Of a stretch of 64,000 nt of DNA, positions 39,017-64,000 are shown piece after piece. Each line of letters opens with the position of its first letter. The first letter of the stretch is position 1. This stretch comes from Escherichia phage VEcB, in sequence record NC_052663.1. One strand, 5' to 3'. The translations under genes and the position numbers were made by a program. Under the pieces are notes generated by a model. The model had not been told where the DNA came from. It made no database searches and was given only the letters and a program-made list of their open reading frames with translations.

Positions 39017-41791
39017 TTAGTTTACCAGTTTATTTATATCTGGTAAAAGATTTATTTCACCTAAAAAATCACCTTCACCTTCCTCTAACCAACTCTCATA
39101 TGCTTGTGCATGATTATAGTTACCATCAAAAGAATCTGCAACAAATTTTTCTACAGCTTTTCGAGATGTGCCAGCGCCAAATACACCAAGTTTAATACCA
39201 TTGATCGGTAAAGTGGTGCTTGTTGGTACTTTCTCTGTTGCAACACGGTTGATATCTATAATCTCCTGTACGGTTGTGTTCCATTGTAAGCATTTAACAC
39301 AACGGGTATGCGCTACATACAGTAGGTTTCGCTCTGCCTCTTCCAGTCCTACCCATTCACCAGTCTTTTTATCATAGTTGGAAGGAAAATCATTAGCAAC
39401 AATAACCTGATCCCACTCCAAACCTTTAGACTTGTGTGCTGTAGTAAGTGTGACTTTTGCTGTAGGAGAATTTCTGTGCGTTCTAAGTGTATGTGCTATG
39501 GTGTTCGCCTTACCAGAAACTACGATGTTTAACAAGCGTTTAGCATCTGGATCAGCCTCTGCACACTCAACAAATTCATCCCAGTCTGCGTAAGGTAATA
39601 CAGTTTCATGTTTTACTTTCTCAATATCTCCTCTCCGAAGAGCATTAACACTATCTACCATAGAGATAAAATCCCTGGTATCTACGTTAATAATAATTTC
39701 TTCCCCATCTGCAATACGATCCATTGCCTCCATAAGCAAGGTTAAATTCTTGCGAAAGATGATAGTGTAAGGTTTTGTATAGTCTACAACATCTGATTTG
39801 TAGCTACCTACTACAGTATCAAAGCCTTTACCAACCAAAGGATGACGCAAAGGTTCTTTATCGCTTAAAATCATATTGGCAATGTTTGCCACTTTGGGGC
39901 CAAAACGGAAGCAAGCAGTTAATGGAAGCTCTGCCCCATACTTAGCTGTTTCAATCATCATATTAGAGCTACCTCTAAATTGATAAATGCAGTTGTGGCT
40001 AAGAATTTCATTGCCAAAGAAGTTAGCAGTATCCTCTACTTCAATATCATAATAGATACCCTCACTATCTACAATGTCCACAATCTCTTCTGCCGTTACA
40101 GTATCACCATCTTTTACCAACACAGACATGCCTTTAAACAAACCCGCTGCCGGAATTAAGTTATATTTGGCACTGTTCACAGAGGACATGCATTCTTTTA
40201 AAGATGCAAACGGAACTATTTCAAGGATCTTTTGTGCAAAACTCAATGCTTCACGATAAGAATTGAAATATTTACGTACACGGTAACGACCTTCCAATTT
40301 AGCAGCACTTACGCTTACACCTGCTTTAATCAGTGAAGAATAGATCGGCATTTCACTTTCTGTCCACTCAAAACTAACTTGTGTTCCTTTACAACCTTGT
40401 GCTCGCAAAGTCACTGTTAGCATTTTTCTTTCATCTACTGCACAATTGATGCTGTGCCAGTGTGGATAAGCAAAATGATAATCTTTATCCTCTAAAAGTT
40501 TAAAACCATTTTGTCCGAATTGTTCAAAGATGTTATTGATCCTTTCTTGATTAATGCCGCGTGAACTTGCTTCAAATACACAAGTAGGAATGCCATATTG
40601 TAAACTGTATGCCATTTCTTTTTCCATAGCAGCTTCACGGTTTTCAACAATATCCAACACCCATAATTTCTGTGCTTTTTCAGAACGTGTACGTTGCCCC
40701 AGTTTAGAAAAACCTTCTTTATCATCGAATTTGTTAGTGATCCCTACTCGGAAACCTAAATCTTTCCTCCACATTAGGTATACCACCATCTGATCATCTT
40801 TCAGAACATAGGATGAAGCCCAAATACGATGGTTATGTGTCATATCTAAAGTTTTACCTGTGGCAGTAATAATATTCCTACCTTTTGTACGTGTAGATAA
40901 AGTCTTATTTGTTACTTTTCTAAATGTAATTTTACCATTAGAATAAGACTCTACCTTATCACCGATTTGTAGGTCTTTCATTGTAACCTGACCATTCTCG
41001 GTATTAAGTACCGTGTTTTCCGACACACATTGGAATTCATCGCCCACTACCACAATTTGTTTTGCAGATTTAGCATTTCGCAGAATAGACAAGAATGCAG
41101 GGTTAACATCCTGGAATTCATCACCAAAAATAATGTCATAACCAAGGTCAGCACCTGATAATTCAAACAATTTTACATAGGTGTCATGCGTCATCAAAGT
41201 ATCTGTGTTAGGATCGATGCGCTCTCGCCACAATTGTTTTGCATACTTAACCACTTCTGTAATTAGTTTGTGTTCGTTAATACCTTTTCTTTTAATATCT
41301 GCAAGATGTACACTAGGAAAATGTTTACGGCTGATAAAAGGATCATCCGAAAATTCAAACTTACCTACGGTTTGCTTGATCATTAAACCGATCATAGCAC
41401 GAGTTAAAAGTGTTTTACCTCGTTTATCAATAAGATTATTAATCTTAAATTTCTTTGCTATCTCGCTACCTGTACCTGCAACGTTAACATACTGTCCTTC
41501 TGGTCGTGACAGTTTTGCGCGTAAACGATGATCCAGGAATTGATAGCAAATAGAATGCAATGTACGGCATTCTACATTTAGTGGCATCTTACGTCGTGCT
41601 TCTTCTGCCATGCTTTTATTGAAAGCTAAGTAAAGAATGCGATCTTCTGTACTGTTAGCCAGCAAATAAAGTGTTGACGTTTTGCCTGATCCAGATTTAG
41701 CTTGGATAGTTAAAAAGCGATGGTCTGGAAAAGCCTCCTTAATAGCTGTTTGCTCTTCTGTTGGAGTGAAGCTCAACTCTTTCTTAGCCAT
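39017..41791 (-). CDS. SF1 (UvrD/PcrA-like) DNA helicase interrupted by an intein
   Basis: Motif I AKSGSGKT, motif II GDEFQD, motif III split as VVVGDEFQ / [intein] / CIYQFRGSS; start at MAKKELS with AGAGG RBS. Confidence 0.7.
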   Translation of the reverse strand: MAKKELSFTPTEEQTAIKEAFPDHRFLTIQAKSGSGKTSTLYLLANSTEDRILYLAFNKSMAEEARRKMPLNVECRTLHSICYQFLDHRLRAKLSRPEGQYVNVAGTGSEIAKKFKINNLIDKRGKTLLTRAMIGLMIKQTVGKFEFSDDPFISRKHFPSVHLADIKRKGINEHKLITEVVKYAKQLWRERIDPNTDTLMTHDTYVKLFELSGADLGYDIIFGDEFQDVNPAFLSILRNAKSAKQIVVVGDEFQCVSENTVLNTENGQVTMKDLQIGDKVESYSNGKITFRKVTNKTLSTRTKGRNIITATGKTLDMTHNHRIWASSYVLKDDQMVVYLMWRKDLGFRVGITNKFDDKEGFSKLGQRTRSEKAQKLWVLDIVENREAAMEKEMAYSLQYGIPTCVFEASSRGINQERINNIFEQFGQNGFKLLEDKDYHFAYPHWHSINCAVDERKMLTVTLRAQGCKGTQVSFEWTESEMPIYSSLIKAGVSVSAAKLEGRYRVRKYFNSYREALSFAQKILEIVPFASLKECMSSVNSAKYNLIPAAGLFKGMSVLVKDGDTVTAEEIVDIVDSEGIYYDIEVEDTANFFGNEILSHNCIYQFRGSSNMMIETAKYGAELPLTACFRFGPKVANIANMILSDKEPLRHPLVGKGFDTVVGSYKSDVVDYTKPYTIIFRKNLTLLMEAMDRIADGEEIIINVDTRDFISMVDSVNALRRGDIEKVKHETVLPYADWDEFVECAEADPDAKRLLNIVVSGKANTIAHTLRTHRNSPTAKVTLTTAHKSKGLEWDQVIVANDFPSNYDKKTGEWVGLEEAERNLLYVAHTRCVKCLQWNTTVQEIIDINRVATEKVPTSTTLPINGIKLGVFGAGTSRKAVEKFVADSFDGNYNHAQAYESWLEEGEGDFLGEINLLPDINKLVN
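39992..41029 (-). mobile_element. Intein (about 346 aa) in helicase motif III
   Basis: Begins with Cys (CVSENTVLNTENGQ), block B TLDMTHNHRIW, block F/G DIEVEDTANFFGNEILSHN followed by extein Cys; extein junction reconstitutes GDEFQ-CIYQFRG. Confidence 0.6.
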
Positions 41792-51350: not shown

Positions 51351-51902
51351 ATGCGGATTACTGATAAGTATGTGTTCTTCTTTTCAGCAAAAGATGAATT
51401 TAGCAACTGGTATCTATCATCTTTTATTGAACCTTTAGCACCCAAGTATAATAATTCTATTACAAGTTCTGTTGAATTTACTTGTGTGGAACAATATATG
51501 ATGTGGAGAAAAGCATGTTTGTTTTATGATTACAGTATTGCATCTTCTATTTTAACCGGAGATCTAAGATATACAGGAGAAAAAGAACAAGCATATTATA
51601 AGCGACTAGGCAGATTAGTTAAAGATTATGATGAAGATACCTGGACTTCTTTACGGGAGAAGATTGTCAAACGTGGTTTGTATCTTAAATACACACAAAA
51701 TGAAGATCTCAAAAATAAACTTATAACCTACGCAGATAAGGAGTTCGTAGAGGCAAGCCCTTATGATTCTATTTATGGTATCAAAATGGGGATGTGGGAT
51801 CGTGACGTGGAAAATAAGGACTGTTGGAAAGGACAAAATCTTTTAGGAAAATGGCATACAGACCTTGCTGTTTATCTAAAAGCACAATCTGATATTTCCT
51901 GA
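51351..51902 (+). CDS. NADAR-domain (YbiA-like) protein
   Basis: Motifs FFFSAKDEFSNWYLSSF and W..G.NLLGKWHTDL match the NADAR/DUF1768 family pattern; ATG overlaps the upstream stop. Confidence 0.55.
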   Translation: MRITDKYVFFFSAKDEFSNWYLSSFIEPLAPKYNNSITSSVEFTCVEQYMMWRKACLFYDYSIASSILTGDLRYTGEKEQAYYKRLGRLVKDYDEDTWTSLREKIVKRGLYLKYTQNEDLKNKLITYADKEFVEASPYDSIYGIKMGMWDRDVENKDCWKGQNLLGKWHTDLAVYLKAQSDIS

Positions 51903-52099
51903 TATTTTGAAAATTTTTATTTTTATAAAAAGGGGTGTGGGTTTCATGTACGGAAATTCACCCTCTGAATAATATATTCAGAGTAAATATTATTTTGTAC
52001 TCTGTTAATAAATTATTTAATTTGTTTGTTGGATTATGATATCTGGTTTTTAAAAGGCATACTATCTCTTAACTACTATTTATAACAGAACAGTAAAAT

Positions 52100-52330
52100 C
52101 ATTTTTATAAAAAGGACAAAATTATTTAAAGTTTTTACAGATTTTTGGATACAAATTTTGAAAATGAAAAGTTCAAGTTTGGTCAAAATTATTTAAAGTT
52201 TTTGTATGTATTTCTATCCATATTTTGAAAATGAAAACTTCAATTTTTTAAAAATTCCCCAGTTTATTTAAAGTTTTTTTGCCTTTTTCCGTAGAAAAAT
52301 GAAAAATGAAAAGTTCAATTTCGTGTTTTT
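52100..52330. repeat. Three tandem ~65-70-bp direct repeats in an AT-rich non-coding region
   Basis: Each unit carries AAATTATTTAAAGTTTTT and TTTTGAAAATGAAAAGTTCAA; TTTTTATAAAAAGG also occurs twice upstream. Confidence 0.6.
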
Positions 52331-52339
52331 ATAGGTGTG

Positions 52340-52455
52340 CTAATGAGAATCATTTTCGTTTGTAAATGAGAATCATTATCATTTAACTATGTAAGTGATA
52401 ATCATTCTCAGTAAGAGAATGAGAATCATTAGCAAATGAGAATTTTATCATTTAG
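52340..52455. promoter_or_regulatory. Cluster of five 13-bp palindromes AATGAGAATCATT (and variants) resembling the Fur-box core
   Basis: Copies at ~52342, 52365, 52397 (inverted), 52430, 52434; the 52362-52380 copy matches 16/19 positions of GATAATGATAATCATTATC. Confidence 0.5.
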
Positions 52456-52714
52456 AGAATAACGCGCAGGGGTGGTGTTTGTCTCGCGCTCCCGTGTCCC
52501 CTCGCCATACAATAAGAATAGCATAACCAACAACAAAAGCAAGCGATTATTTTTATCTTTACATTTCTTTACAAATTTATTTTAGACGAGCTACCGGCGA
52601 TCAACCTTCCAACCAGTGCCCCCTGGTATGTTAGCCCCGCCTTTACGCCGTGGGGGTGGCGCTTCCTCTTCTGTATGTAAAACAGTATAAGCCCGATCCC
52701 TGGGCTTGTCAAGA

Positions 52715-53062
52715 TTATTTTTTGTTTTCTTGCCAGGATAGGACACCTAACCAAAAATACATGTCGCCCCGCGCCCCTGGTGGGATCTTGCTTTCCCCGC
52801 CGCCACTGCAAGCCCATAGATAACCATTTGCGAACGTATCAAAATGATCTATTTCTTCCACCTTATGATCGCCCAGGTTGAGAACGGTTTCAACCTTTAA
52901 GCCCGTTGCGCTTGCTACCTGGTGCACCGTGCCGCCTTGCCAGCCCAATGAGTGCATGAGGTGTAAAGTAGTATTTGTCATGGTATCGCCCTTTCTTTGA
53001 TGTGCGCCCTGGTTGGCGCGGTAGAAAGATAATAGCCCCTTTCCTTTATAGATAGCAAGCAA
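52715..53062 (-). CDS. Hypothetical protein inside a GC-rich island (true start possibly the internal Met MTNTT)
   Basis: ORF track; local GC clearly above the window average. Confidence 0.3.
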   Translation of the reverse strand: MLAIYKGKGLLSFYRANQGAHQRKGDTMTNTTLHLMHSLGWQGGTVHQVASATGLKVETVLNLGDHKVEEIDHFDTFANGYLWACSGGGESKIPPGARGDMYFWLGVLSWQENKK

Positions 53063-53248
53063 AAAAGAAATGAAAAAAGATTAAAAAAGGGGTTGACGTT
53101 CCTCACCTGGTAGCGTATTATTCATCTTGTCGAGGGGGGCGAGGCACAACGACAATAAACAAAAGGAGGGCGCAATGTAGGACGGGCAAAGGTGAGGATC
53201 TCCACAATCCACCGTCACAATAACATTACTTATAAAAGGTTGATAACG

Positions 53249-53344
53249 ATGGTCAAGAAAGAAAACAGCTTGACGGTTGGAACGATTAACGCTATCATTC
53301 TCGCCGTTCCATTTTGGATTGTAGTTGCGGTTATTATTTTCTAA
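53249..53344 (+). CDS. Small hydrophobic peptide (31 aa), not in the ORF track
   Basis: ATG downstream of TTGACG-N17-TATTAT promoter-like sequence; single TM-like helix. Confidence 0.25.
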   Translation: MVKKENSLTVGTINAIILAVPFWIVVAVIIF

Positions 53345-53353
53345 AAAATATTC

Positions 53354-53413
53354 TTGACAACGTTTTTTAATCTGATAAGATGTATCACATAGGGCGGGAA
53401 ATGGTTTCCCGCC
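53354..53413 (+). promoter_or_regulatory. Sigma70-type promoter (TTGACA ... TAAGAT) plus conserved leader hairpin GGCGGGAAA-TGG-TTTCCCGCC
   Basis: -35 TTGACA, 16-nt spacer, -10 TAAGAT; perfect 9-bp stem with 3-nt loop starting near the predicted +1. Confidence 0.6.
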
Positions 53414-54025: not shown

Positions 54026-54286
54026 TTGTTTTTTCTAAAAGTTTTTGATAATGTGATCGCTTTTGAACATGCTACAACGTTCGACCTGGCGAGATACGCT
54101 ATCAGGTTTAAAGATAATGTTTATCCCCGTGCTGGCGGCGGTTACACTATTTTTAATCATCGTAATTCCCAACTAACGGATATAACTAATCCAGATCCGG
54201 GCGTGTATCGCATAGGCTGGCTACCGTCAAAAGACGCGGCAAGCATGTTTAAGGTATGTAAACTACTAACAGAAGAGGCGAACTAA
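54026..54286 (+). CDS. Hypothetical early protein (TTG start)
   Basis: GGGGAGGA RBS 5 nt upstream of TTG. Confidence 0.4.
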   Translation: MFFLKVFDNVIAFEHATTFDLARYAIRFKDNVYPRAGGGYTIFNHRNSQLTDITNPDPGVYRIGWLPSKDAASMFKVCKLLTEEAN

Positions 54287-54287
54287 C

Positions 54288-54842
54288 ATGGGGCGTGAGT
54301 ATGTGATCCAGTCCTGGGTAAAGCATGACGCTAATGATCCGCGCATAATACCAGATGACATGATCGATCACATGGTAGGGTATAGCGGGGAGCAGATAGG
54401 AAATCGAGCGGCAAAGAGCAACGGCAACACAAAGGCGCGATCCGTTCGCCCTGGTTGGCTGGCAAATGGTAACGCTGACATTGCAAGCGCCGCAGATCCA
54501 AGCGATGACGCTAAAAATAATCCCTTATACAGTATTGATCCGGCTTTTAAGGTGTTGGAAGAGTATCCCGCTAAATTAGCCGCACTAGATAAAGCATACG
54601 AAGAAAAACGGGTGGCATGGACGGTATACAACACCGCTAAAATGGTGCTAGATGCAAAATTGATTAAAGCCCAGGAGAAGATCAATAAACTTGTTGCAGT
54701 AGCGCAAGAGGAAGACCAGGACGACCAGGAGGAAGAGGAAGAAATCATGCCTACCCTGGAAGAGGAAGAGATCCAGCCATACATGCCGACGGAAGAGGAA
54801 AAAAGACAAGCCCTAAAAAATTATGAAAATTGTATTGTGTAA
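54288..54842 (+). CDS. Hypothetical early protein with strongly acidic C-terminal tail
   Basis: C-terminal EEDQDDQEEEEEIMPTLEEEEIQ. Confidence 0.45.
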   Translation: MGREYVIQSWVKHDANDPRIIPDDMIDHMVGYSGEQIGNRAAKSNGNTKARSVRPGWLANGNADIASAADPSDDAKNNPLYSIDPAFKVLEEYPAKLAALDKAYEEKRVAWTVYNTAKMVLDAKLIKAQEKINKLVAVAQEEDQDDQEEEEEIMPTLEEEEIQPYMPTEEEKRQALKNYENCIV

Positions 54843-61770: not shown

Positions 61771-62115
61771 GTATTCTTTTTTCACGATGGAAGTAACACG
61801 TAAAGAATAGGCGTAAAGGTGGCGTAAAACAGCCTAAAACCGATTATAACCGCTTAAACAAGGTAGGAATGATTAATCACCTTACCAGGATGAAAAAGCT
61901 GTTATAAAGCTATCTAGGGCGTTTAAAGAACATAGGAAATAATTTGCTTTTTATCTTGCCTTTTATCCTGCTTTTGATTATTATTATGGAACGGGCGGCA
62001 CCTGGGGACAGGGGAAGATAATCACCGGAAGATCCCGCTATATATTGATAGCTAACATCTATCAAACAACAAAACATCAAAGGAATAAACTATCAAATCT
62101 TTACAATCTTATCTA

Positions 62116-62144
62116 TTGACCGATAAATCATAACCGTTTAATAT
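62116..62144 (+). promoter_or_regulatory. Sigma70-type promoter (TTGACC-N17-TAATAT)
   Basis: Near-consensus hexamers upstream of 62193..62429. Confidence 0.45.
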
Positions 62145-62192
62145 TGTTTTTAGAGGGTAGAACATACCCAAAACGAAAACAGGAAAAAGAAA

Positions 62193-62429
62193 ATGAAAGA
62201 AGTCATGATCCTCAAAAAATCACCTATTTTACGTGGTGGCTTTATCGCTTACTCTGATGATCTGTTAATTGCAACGGTTGCAAAAATACTAAAATCAGAA
62301 GAGGATAGTAAAAACGGCGTTTATCGTATCTGTTTCACCCGTGGGAAATTGCAAGGCAAGATCGCCTATGCTTTTGATTTACAAGATGTAAATGATAAAA
62401 TCTGCGCTGTTATTGATTATGCAAAATAA
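62193..62429 (+). CDS. Hypothetical small protein
   Basis: Promoter TTGACC-N17-TAATAT upstream. Confidence 0.4.
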   Translation: MKEVMILKKSPILRGGFIAYSDDLLIATVAKILKSEEDSKNGVYRICFTRGKLQGKIAYAFDLQDVNDKICAVIDYAK

Positions 62430-62441
62430 TTAACTTTCTTA

Positions 62442-62470
62442 TTGACACCGGATCACGCTTACATTATTAT
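62442..62470 (+). promoter_or_regulatory. Sigma70-type promoter (TTGACA-N17-TATTAT) with degenerate leader (CACGTAGGGCAAATCATTTT)
   Basis: Consensus -35; leader keeps the CAC-TAGGGC start but lost the stem. Confidence 0.5.
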
Positions 62471-62516
62471 TTATCACGTAGGGCAAATCATTTTAAACGG
62501 TAAACGAGGAATCACC

Positions 62517-62900
62517 ATGAGCAATATCATCAACCTGGCGGCTACTGTAAACGGTAAAGACTTTAACGGCGCTGTAGATCGTGATCCTATGTGGTGCTTG
62601 TCAGTATTTAAAGGTGATTTAGTTGAAGTTAGAACAACCGAAGGGTATAGCGATGATTATAAATGCGAGATCCATTTACATAACTGGTACACGGGTAAAA
62701 CTTATGCGCTGAATCACGCGTTTATCGGGAAAATTGAATATCGTGAGATGATCGACGAAGAAACGGGGCAAGATTTTAGCCAGCATGTTTATATTCGTTC
62801 CGAAACATTAGCCGAACGTTTGATCGAGAAAATGAAAGCAAAAAATAAAATTAATTTATCTCATTGGATTGATATAACAAACGATCCTGCTTATCAGTAA
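62517..62900 (+). CDS. Hypothetical protein (start at internal ATG)
   Basis: Promoter TTGACA-N17-TATTAT upstream; terminator downstream. Confidence 0.45.
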   Translation: MSNIINLAATVNGKDFNGAVDRDPMWCLSVFKGDLVEVRTTEGYSDDYKCEIHLHNWYTGKTYALNHAFIGKIEYREMIDEETGQDFSQHVYIRSETLAERLIEKMKAKNKINLSHWIDITNDPAYQ

Positions 62901-62912
62901 ATAACATTTCAT

Positions 62913-62945
62913 ACCAGGGCGCACAAAGCGCCCTTTCTTTTTACC
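62913..62945 (+). terminator. Rho-independent terminator closing the small-gene array
   Basis: AGGGCGC-ACAAA-GCGCCCT followed by TTCTTTTT. Confidence 0.6.
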
Positions 62946-63149
62946 TAAATAAAGATGATAGCTTTTACCTATCAAAAACGTTCACCGAAAAAAGTGAATA
63001 GATCGCGGTATCGAGCTAATCAAGGAGCAGATGAATAACCATACCATGAAGATCATAAGGCGTTTACAACGTGTTTTAGACCGCTTGTTTTTAATTTCTT
63101 CATGCAACTATCTGGCAAAAACAGCCTTTTTCTTGTCTTTCCTCTTAAA

Positions 63150-63222
63150 TAATAATCATTCTCATTTATAGCTGATTATTTATGCAATAAACTGAATAAT
63201 GTAATAATGATAATCATTCTTA
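63150..63222. promoter_or_regulatory. Two further Fur-box-like palindromes
   Basis: AATAATCATTCTCATT at ~63151 and TAATAATGATAATCATTCT at ~63202 (16/19 to the Fur-box consensus, core AATGATAATCATT exact). Confidence 0.45.
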
Positions 63223-64000
63223 ACTTAAGGCCATCTAACCTATAAAATAATAAGCTATCTAACTAAATTAAAGCTAATTATCTCACCTTTATTTATAACT
63301 TACTGTTACTATCTCATTGATAACCTTATATTAAACAACAATAACTAATATAAATCATTACCAAGCTAAATATAATCTATCTAACCTTTAAAACTATAAC
63401 TATAATCTATTGAATTATTGCACAAAGTAACTATTAAATCGTTAGTAACATTACTAAATAATTCATATCCTATCTATTTATGATCTAACCTTTACCTTCT
63501 TATCTATTACCTAAGTAATCATTTCATACAATAACTATAACAAGAAATATAATTCGCAAGCGTATCATTAGCAGCCTATGCCGGACACATAGGCGGCTAA
63601 TAATAACGCAACTACACACCCCACATAATAACCATCACCGATAGTTATTATTTGTGCTTATGTAGCTTGCAACAATTGCAAGCGCAACAATATACATGGT
63701 ATATTGTATTCCCTTACATTGTTGCGGTGCGTTATTATTAGCTAATGTTTAGAACATTGGCTATAATATAAGCTATCCAATAATAAACATAATGAATAAT
63801 GATACTGAAATGAATAATGACACTGATGATCATAATGCGCCACCTTCCAGGGGGCGCTATGTGAACACAAAGAAATCTTTCTTGTCAAGAAAAATATTAC
63901 CACTATTGCGCAAAATTATTTTTATCTGAATAGATGATTTTTCATACTATTGCCCCCTTGATTATTACTATTTGTTGAGTATAGTTATCCCTATTTGTTG

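Follow-up and report, generated by a model that had tools for sequence, protein, structure and literature searches.

A conserved small gene and a predicted promoter-driven non-coding RNA beside a Fur-box array in phi92-like phages

Gene, promoter and non-coding core of the GC-rich segment

The 64,000-nucleotide stretch of Escherichia phage VEcB (NC_052663.1) analysed here, referred to below as the window, derives from a phi92-like coliphage of the genus Justusliebigvirus (Stephanstirmvirinae). Positions 52470-53062 form a GC-rich segment with two overlapping minus-strand open reading frames (ORFs), located in a gene-poor stretch of 1.5 kb; for this segment a sequence-only reading had suggested horizontally acquired DNA or a structured RNA locus. 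Leftwards on the minus strand, the segment comprises a promoter-like site, an 88-aa gene, a predicted promoter (P1) with a hairpin in its spacer, a non-coding core ("RNA-1"), a second promoter region (P2) and a GC-rich module, and is followed on its left by an array of Fur-box palindromes and then by three AT-rich repeats of approximately 70 bp (Table 1).

The compositional shift that drew attention to the segment is borne out, its GC content being 0.484 against a window mean of 0.377 (z 3.57; tiles of 593 nt, standard deviation 0.030). Only 0.17% of the tiles reach this value, the peak tile (52591-53183) stands at 0.494 and a near-equal second patch is found at 54201-54793 (0.486). The AT-rich surroundings are likewise confirmed in the left flank, with 23% GC in 51903-52461 and 20% in 52101-52321. 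Within the segment the GC content is uneven, amounting to 67% in 52462-52510, 23% in 52511-52585, 62% in 52586-52672 and 49% in the ORF 52715-52981, and its peaks coincide with RNA or terminator helices and with one gene, which argues that the GC-richness is not of foreign origin. One of the two GC-rich strings quoted in the sequence-only reading, CGCCCCGCGCCCCTGGTGGG, lies within this gene and encodes KIPPGARG, and the other (52463-52506) is non-coding.

A megablast search with 52000-53400 matched 138 phage records, the top full-length matches, at 97-98% identity, being Escherichia phages alia, EmilieFrey/Bas61, outra and others, and sensitive blastn with a 631-bp query (52440-53070) matched 237 phage records, 123 of them at a coverage of at least 80%. 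Phage phi92 is 98.9% identical to the window over the latter query, matches in Justusliebigvirus and Phapecoctavirus range from 86 to 99% identity, and partial matches occur in Seunavirus, Mydovirus, Certrevirus, Henunavirus and Avunavirus. In the 20 relatives for which the loci were fetched, the matched sequence occupies one and the same gap, with a plus-strand gene upstream and small plus-strand genes downstream. The sole part that aligns in the distant genera is 52556-52681 (80-85% identity), where most records annotate nothing. Conservation in synteny across two phage subfamilies leads to the rejection of recent horizontal acquisition, the segment being present and syntenic in all relatives examined, and conservation in relatives was among the outcomes that the sequence-only reading had itself given as refuting; by this conservation the segment is an ancient piece of phage DNA. 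No blastn match to the element was found in 5,426 E. coli genomes, a search too insensitive for short seeds or targets, and host mimicry was set aside on this result, with the same reservation for short seeds. Attempts to widen the family with a first viral-contig pattern and a genome-contig pattern returned GC-rich chance matches, none of the genome ones being confirmed by nhmmer. A stricter pattern scan recovered 14 loci, all on viral contigs of 37-153 kb (nine on contigs of 145-153 kb).

Both minus-strand ORFs of the sequence-only reading exist as open frames between plus-strand genes, and a single one is a real gene. The listed ORF 52715-53062 starts in fact at the ATG at 52981, the start annotated in relatives, and its 88-aa product matches phrog_19316, a phage-only family, from end to end. 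Its 21 homologues share 18 invariant residues over 45-89% identity, and among those with long contigs on record the contigs extend to approximately 148 kb. The ribosome-binding region of the gene (52978-53004) recurs in inverted orientation at the next plus-strand gene, 53436 (inverted repeat I1). In Seunavirus and Mydovirus another small ORF, phrog_4653, occupies this position, and a weak helix-turn-helix flavour of the 88-aa protein is only a lead. The second ORF, 52569-52817, spans the terminator-like hairpin, the promoter and the conserved core. It has no family match, near-identical phages differ downstream of P1 by loop indels of 1-2 nt that break the frame, and the stop-free stretch over the invariant motif in lineages L146 and L017 does not exceed 15 aa; it is thus spurious, and its removal is a gain for annotation.

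The predicted promoter P1 is found immediately past the stop codon of the 88-aa gene. In all 32 distinct sequences of the alignment used to compare the promoter and the conservation of the core, its counterparts score 9-12/12 with a spacing of 17-18 nt. Hexamer positions are conserved at 62-100%, except for position 5 of the -10 hexamer (34%), while most spacer positions lie at 34-72%; this is the pattern of a sigma-70 promoter, with a spacing of 16-18 nt and hexamers that are conserved while the spacer varies. The A-tract and -35 hexamer are 94% identical to those of the plus-strand promoter at 53343-53360 (I3), so that P1 appears by sequence to be of the same class as a plus-strand early promoter, and transcription from it would start near 52676. 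The spacer itself contains a terminator-like GC hairpin with a U-rich tail. Most lineages carry spacer hairpins of other sequence (GCCCC/GGGGC, GCGCCC/GGGCGC, GGCCCC/GGGGCC or GCCGGGC/GCCUGGC), and the hairpin covaries, the pairing being kept while the lineages differ in sequence. A GC hairpin with a U-rich tail in this location suggests that the 88-aa gene has its terminator inside the promoter of the following unit.

Downstream of P1, the proposal of a structured RNA locus holds for the left half of the segment only (approximately 52463-52677), the right half being an ordinary small protein gene. The left half combines a dedicated conserved promoter and the absence of coding potential with a single covarying hairpin and with conservation that outlasts that of its flanks. 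Pairing in the stems S1, S2 and P3 was tested on a 26-sequence alignment (A5), in which 86.7% of the cells are paired, against 29-51% when the partner strand is slid. Six pairs, five of them in P3, have changed on both sides, against 2.5 in shuffles. The covariation score of 0.097 compares with 0.043 for shuffled alignments, none of 500 of which attains it, and with 0.006-0.040 when slid. In P3, pair 46-68 is AU in 16 sequences and GC in 10, pair 45-69 is CG in 25 and GC in one, and pair 49-66 is CG in 24 and GC in two, with no pair broken and a bulged A retained; compensatory changes of the kind expected of a structured non-coding RNA are thus present in P3 only. A "type B" allele (NDO71, Ro1, P7_Pc, A5-4, SNUABM01 and L035) has S2 as CCAA:UUGG, and only the type A allele could form an alternative, competing helix over a longer range, GGCGG:UCGCC. 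The strand of the RNA leans to minus, as G-U pairs exceed A-C pairs by five to one in S2 and P3, and both the mean minimum free energy (MFE; -30.4 minus, -28.4 plus) and the consensus energy (-55.5 minus, -49.8 plus) are lower for this strand. The conserved P1 faces in this direction too, and a gene inserted after the core in Raoultella phage Ro1, described below, likewise has the minus orientation. The 3' end of 16S rRNA reads GAUCACCU, and a conserved motif of the core, GGAAGGU-N-GAUC (52603-52612; minus strand GGAAGGUUGAUC), is complementary to it, with a one-base bulge at its only variable position (read from the alignment) and no start codon after it; the motif is missing in type B.

Two tandem alleles, a partial type A with promoter followed by a full type B, are present in Raoultella phage Ro1 (L018 601-1649) and Pectobacterium phage P7_Pc (L006 1477-1986). 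In Ro1 a gene for an HNH endonuclease (phrog_953) lies between them, inserted directly after the core in minus orientation; it has a ribosome-binding site of its own, and the sequence that was read shows no evident promoter dedicated to it. Both Ro1 copies carry changes in the invariant motif (GATCGCTGGTA and AATCGCCGGCAG), which would be expected if it were the homing site. A group I intron in Ro1 was discarded, as no intron core is recognised by Rfam and the inserted sequence is an HNH gene standing on its own, with an allele of the element on either side. Rfam gave no matches at the Ro1 and P7_Pc loci, and ARAGORN found no tRNA or tmRNA in the window.

Table 1. Features of the locus and its surroundings; positions are those of the window.
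Feature	Position	Strand	Description
NADAR/YbiA-like gene	51351-51902		Pfam E 6e-36; left neighbour of the segment
Three direct repeats	52101..52321	none	approximately 67-79 bp each; 20% GC; left of the Fur array
Five Fur-box-type palindromes	52339..52458	none	AATGAGAATCATT(C/A/T)TC..; just left of the GC-rich segment
GC-rich module	52463..52506	minus	67% GC; conserved loop GAGACAAACACC; P2 faces the module; MFE z +0.8
Second promoter region	52515..52574	minus	TTGTAA-17-AATAAT (52574 to 52546), 9/12, and weak P2
P2 homologue	52542-52537 and 52520-52515	minus	TTGCTT, 16 nt, TATTCT; 7/12, weak; the 9/12 site lies 30 nt upstream
Tandem TGTAAAGA-N2-TGTAAAGA	52556..52573	minus	10-nt register; retained by almost all relatives; P2 lies just downstream
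Non-coding core (RNA-1)	52586..52677	minus	purine-rich leader, S1, S2, P3 and invariant AUCGCCGGUAG, in this order
Invariant motif AUCGCCGGUAG	52591-52601	minus	unpaired
Hairpin P3	52605-52634	minus	covarying
Pairing S2, CCCC:GGGG	52652-52655 with 52635-52638	minus	pseudoknot if S1 forms too
Stem S1, CGCC/GGCG	52646-52661	minus
Predicted promoter P1	52684..52712	minus	TTGACA (52712-52707), 17 nt, TATACT (52689-52684); 11/12
Terminator-like GC hairpin	52689..52707	minus	AAGCCC-AGGGATC-GGGCTT and U-rich tail; within P1 spacer; flagged by scan
Small protein gene, 88 aa	52715..52981	minus	MTNTTLHLMHSLGWQGGTVHQVASATGL...FWLGVLSWQENKK; stop codon included; frame and residues conserved, family match
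Promoter-like site for 88-aa gene	53029..53058	minus	TTGCTA-18-TATTAT, 9/12; divergent from plus-strand promoters 53093, 53270 and 53354
Strong sigma-70-like promoters	53093, 53270, 53354	plus	all within 300 bp; small plus-strand genes follow
Two further Fur boxes	63148-63166, 63203-63221		in the next large non-coding region

Second promoter region, Fur boxes and AT-rich repeats

In Vequintavirinae, P2 takes the forms TTGCAA/TTGATC/TTGACC-16/17-TATATT/TATTAT, scoring 9-10/12 in most sequences and 8/12 in UPEC06, A5-4 and Av-05, and in Certrevirus (CR3 and POP15) its spacer holds a terminator-like GC hairpin, as at P1. The tandem TGTAAAGA repeat may be an UP-like element, an activator site or part of the RNA; the start point of P2 is approximately 40-60 nt downstream of it, and its plus strand reads TTTACA twice, resembling the half-site pattern of OmpR-type sites. 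The GC-rich module could be either the 5' part of an RNA starting at P2 or a 3' hairpin followed by UUAUUCUCU, a combination that makes a weak candidate for the 3' terminator of the RNA. A further hairpin, "P5" (52504-52522; G-U 22, A-C 3), was downgraded because it overlaps the -10 hexamer and start point of P2, and a type I toxin-antitoxin pair derived from inverted repeat I6 was rejected, as complementarity at 14 of 18 positions is by our own estimate expected several times by chance in the region. In genomes of Mydovirus and Henunavirus, an inverted second copy of the P2-like site, GC module and Fur box is found approximately 7 kb away (L070 4306-4424, L148 4970-5104 and L136 1168-1308); the window has no such copy apart from the Fur boxes at 63148-63221.

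The palindromes left of the GC module correspond to the E. coli Fur consensus GATAATGATAATCATTATC, with five matches at up to three mismatches against 0.05 expected, and to AATGAGAATCATTCTCATT, with four sites (seven strand matches) against 0.06 expected. Sites conforming to GATAATGATAATCATTATC or to the 9-1-9 form AATGAnAATnATTnTCATT are thus present in the sequence, and their enrichment was reached in none of 100 shuffles. The sequence AATGAGAATCATTCTCATT agrees at every position with the 9-1-9 Fur consensus derived for Xanthomonas iron-regulated genes (PMC1790865) and also resembles the Fur sites of A. baumannii (PMC3055841). The array is present in every genus among the relatives, with a spacing of 29 bp in ESCO13 and four copies at 29-38 bp in CR3, and in phages that infect six genera of enterobacteria (Escherichia, Salmonella, Klebsiella, Cronobacter, Pectobacterium and Erwinia). 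A Fur-box array in a virulent phage is an unusual feature. Two further Fur boxes lie in a second large AT-rich region (62900-64000; 33% GC in 62001-64000), which contains only short ORFs (at most 53 aa), continues past the end of the window and probably corresponds to the "non-coding" box shown in the rV5 genome paper, in which the origin could not be placed. At 40461-40489, a perfect DnaA box (TTATCCACA, minus strand) adjoins a Fur-box-like 19-mer (CAAAATGATAATCTTTATC), possibly by chance.

A layout of three repeats also occurs in CR3, KPP-1, PVP-SE1 and SNUABM01, where the sequence is different and GATC-rich, and the repeats were located in relatives at L003 1087-1280, L004 1093-1297, L005 1230-1438 and L012 1222-1407. 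The repeats are unrelated in sequence between the subfamilies, the Vequintavirinae versions having GATC-containing palindromes (CTCGATCGAG), and may be iterons or operator sites. In every genus examined the context is origin-like, with 560 bp of gene-less DNA at 20-23% GC, three repeats of approximately 70 bp and four to five regularly spaced palindromes, and the minus strand downstream of the core holds no gene. Gene-less AT-rich DNA with repeats, arrayed sites and a promoter directed towards it, the features of an iteron or transcription-activated origin, are thus found together.

Proposed function and competing explanations

The segment may be read as the GC-rich part of an ancient leftward early transcription region in myophages related to phi92, phAPEC8 and rV5. 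A sigma-70-type promoter at approximately 53058-53029 would express the 88-aa phage-specific protein (52981-52715), the message of which would end at the GC hairpin inside the spacer of P1 (52712-52684). P1 would then start an untranslated RNA, whose first 90 nt or so surpass all other non-coding sequence of the region in conservation and would hold the well-supported P3, possibly a small S1/S2 pseudoknot, and the invariant unpaired AUCGCCGGUAG. Leftward transcription is envisaged to pass P2 and the GC module before reaching the Fur boxes and the three AT-rich repeats. Made early in infection by host RNA polymerase, the RNA may act in cis on the gene-less AT-rich repeat region, activating or priming an origin-like or control element in the manner of ColE1 RNA II and the T4 and T7 origin transcripts, and Fur on the array would be in a position to restrict or gate read-through. 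We put this reading as a whole at a probability of about 0.5, a compromise between its two parts: the anatomy, namely a gene and a promoter-driven non-coding RNA that were not horizontally acquired, is quite probable, and the cis-acting or origin mechanism is tentative. The conservation, the promoter architecture, the non-coding status and the covariation in P3 are computational results, and transcription of the strand, the end of the RNA and its role are inferences.

Several results weigh against this reading. The Rfam scan (release 15) proposed in the sequence-only reading returned no family at gathering threshold in the whole window, and the matches obtained at E values up to 10 are at chance level and far under threshold. 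On neither strand is the folding energy lower than in shuffled sequence (z +0.27 to +0.80; core +0.5). S1 never varies and is therefore uninformative, and S2 is supported by one allele change, which probably arose once in evolution. The window scan revealed no canonical intrinsic (Rho-independent) terminator downstream of P1. As for an origin, DnaA boxes (TTWTNCACA) are absent from 51900-53100, which weakens the idea, and there is no switch in strand composition at the locus, the cumulative GC-skew minimum lying at approximately 47-48 kb, where gene orientation switches. The palindromes are moreover of the host Fur-box type rather than known initiator sites, a literature search found no RNA-seq for these phages, and the conserved unpaired motifs fit a trans-acting RNA at least as well.

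An RNA of the same anatomy acting in trans, as an early small regulatory or protein-binding RNA, is doubtful but nearly as likely as the cis mechanism; it might pair with host or phage messages through the invariant AUCGCCGGUAG, or use GGAAGGU-N-GAUC and the purine-rich leader to sequester a protein or the ribosome. Such a role would suit its own strong conserved promoter, a compact core in which a covarying hairpin stands beside invariant unpaired motifs, the 16S complementarity described above, and the homing-type HNH gene and allele duplication at the invariant motif, which are typical of functionally constrained targets. The invariant motif has, however, no other near-match on either strand of the window and thus no complementary site there, and the scan result of no canonical terminator downstream of P1 and the loss of GGAAGGU in type B also speak against it; the E. 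coli search was far too insensitive for short targets. It is unlikely that the conserved sequence acts as DNA instead, as a nucleoprotein control or replication-origin region with protein sites and single-strand hairpins from which transcription is incidental. The Fur palindromes, the TGTAAAGA repeat in 10-nt register, the promoter hexamers and the GATC palindromes of the Vequintavirinae repeats are all blocks resembling DNA sites, and the RNA fold has no thermodynamic excess, but the promoter aimed at the core is universally kept and G-U pairs exceed A-C pairs. The pairing of P3 likewise survives changes on both sides with its bulged A retained, which indicates a hairpin formed by a single strand and not a site bound as duplex DNA.

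A functional RNA on the opposite strand, either antisense to the minus-strand RNA or in its place, is improbable. It would be repressed by Fur, start at approximately 52463 after the last Fur box and end at CGCCGTGGGGGTGGCG and a pyrimidine tract (52646-52672). In many relatives a Fur box does lie between a -35-like TTGAAT and a -10-like CAGAAT, a terminator-like plus-strand site was flagged at 52646-52661, some genomes carry a further copy of a unit that starts at the Fur box, and one base change specific to the window keeps a G-U pair on the plus strand only (read from the alignment). This promoter, however, scores just 7-8/12 in 30 of the 32 sequences at shifting positions and is without a -35 hexamer in the window, the supposed U-tract is CUUCCUCUUCU, the ratio of G-U to A-C pairs and the energies favour the minus strand, and the duplicated unit holds the minus-strand P2 as well. 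A recently acquired foreign island, perhaps with overlapping minus-strand protein genes, the principal proposal of the sequence-only reading, is highly improbable. The top GC content of the window and the minus-strand orientation would agree with it, but the segment is syntenic in two phage subfamilies, shows no similarity to E. coli genomes and has one gene only among its two ORFs, and its GC peaks fall on helices and hairpins.

Transcripts that activate or prime origins include ColE1 RNA II, the ori(uvsY) and ori(34) transcripts of phage T4 and those from the T7 primary-origin promoters. The predicted RNA would resemble them in being an untranslated, partly structured RNA with G/C runs, directed by a host-polymerase promoter towards AT-rich, gene-less repeats. 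Unlike these systems, the locus lacks sequence or Rfam similarity, DnaA boxes and a skew change, any R-loop or RNase H role is putative, Fur boxes are adjacent, and a second promoter and further modules intervene. In being a short untranslated RNA with a sigma-70 promoter and a conserved hairpin in a regulatory region, it is also comparable to lambda OOP, P22 Sar, P1/P7 C4, P4 CI, the T4 species 1/2 RNAs and the pseudo-ToxI of PhiTE, but has no overlapping antisense target and belongs neither to C4 nor to any other Rfam family. The pseudo-ToxI antitoxin mimic itself, although from a related phage, was dismissed as a counterpart, since it sits at a different locus of the PhiTE genome. The junction at P1 recalls the back-to-back terminators and promoters of phage early regions, where a hairpin with a U-rich tail closes one unit and a sigma-70 promoter opens the next; in contrast to the usual junctions, the hairpin lies within the 17-nt promoter spacer, an arrangement that recurs at P2 in CR3 and POP15. 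Literature searches on these phage groups with regard to small RNAs, Fur boxes, RNA-seq or origins yielded no paper describing this element or Fur boxes in these phages, and we regard the element as a new family within a known kind, phage non-coding RNAs with a promoter of their own in regulatory regions.

The Fur array has its closest likeness in the Fur-regulated loci of Gammaproteobacteria, such as iron-uptake promoters and RyhB/PrrF, which share several 19-bp 9-1-9 palindromes matching published Fur consensuses. It differs from them in that the predicted boxes do not overlie a convincing promoter but lie downstream of the minus-strand promoters, in a virulent phage. A Fur-gated non-coding module in the virulent phi92/phAPEC8/PVP-SE1/CR3-group myophages, with Fur bound at the array and at 63148-63221, is a rather unlikely proposal. 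If it were true, the phage would sense the iron status of the cell to set read-through into the origin-like repeats or, alternatively, titration of Fur by replicating phage DNA would de-repress host iron uptake. Phages such as phi92, phAPEC8, PVP-SE1, CR3 and the BASEL isolates Bas60-62 are commonly isolated, infect a wide range of hosts and are used in therapy. A predicted promoter-driven RNA better conserved than its neighbouring genes and a row of Fur boxes point to an unstudied early control point, candidate roles of which are replication start, the timing of early genes or the sensing of host iron.

Neighbouring features

To the right of the segment, the cluster of plus-strand promoters (53093-53381) is divergent from the minus-strand unit and probably marks the start of an early gene block. 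The promoter at 53270-53298, of the sigma-70-like type, lies inside a strongly hydrophobic 31-aa ORF (53249-53344; MVKKENSLTVGTINAIILAVPFWIVVAVIIF), which is annotated in EmilieFrey as bas61_0110 and could be a small membrane peptide or else no gene. Among the database records, MG065639.1, MG065650.1, OP562383.1 and OK210077.1 are 94-99% identical in this segment to E. coli phi92/phAPEC8-like phages and bear the names Campylobacter phage A150/B15, Acinetobacter phage ABPW7 and Serratia phage KKP_3264, host labels that look doubtful.

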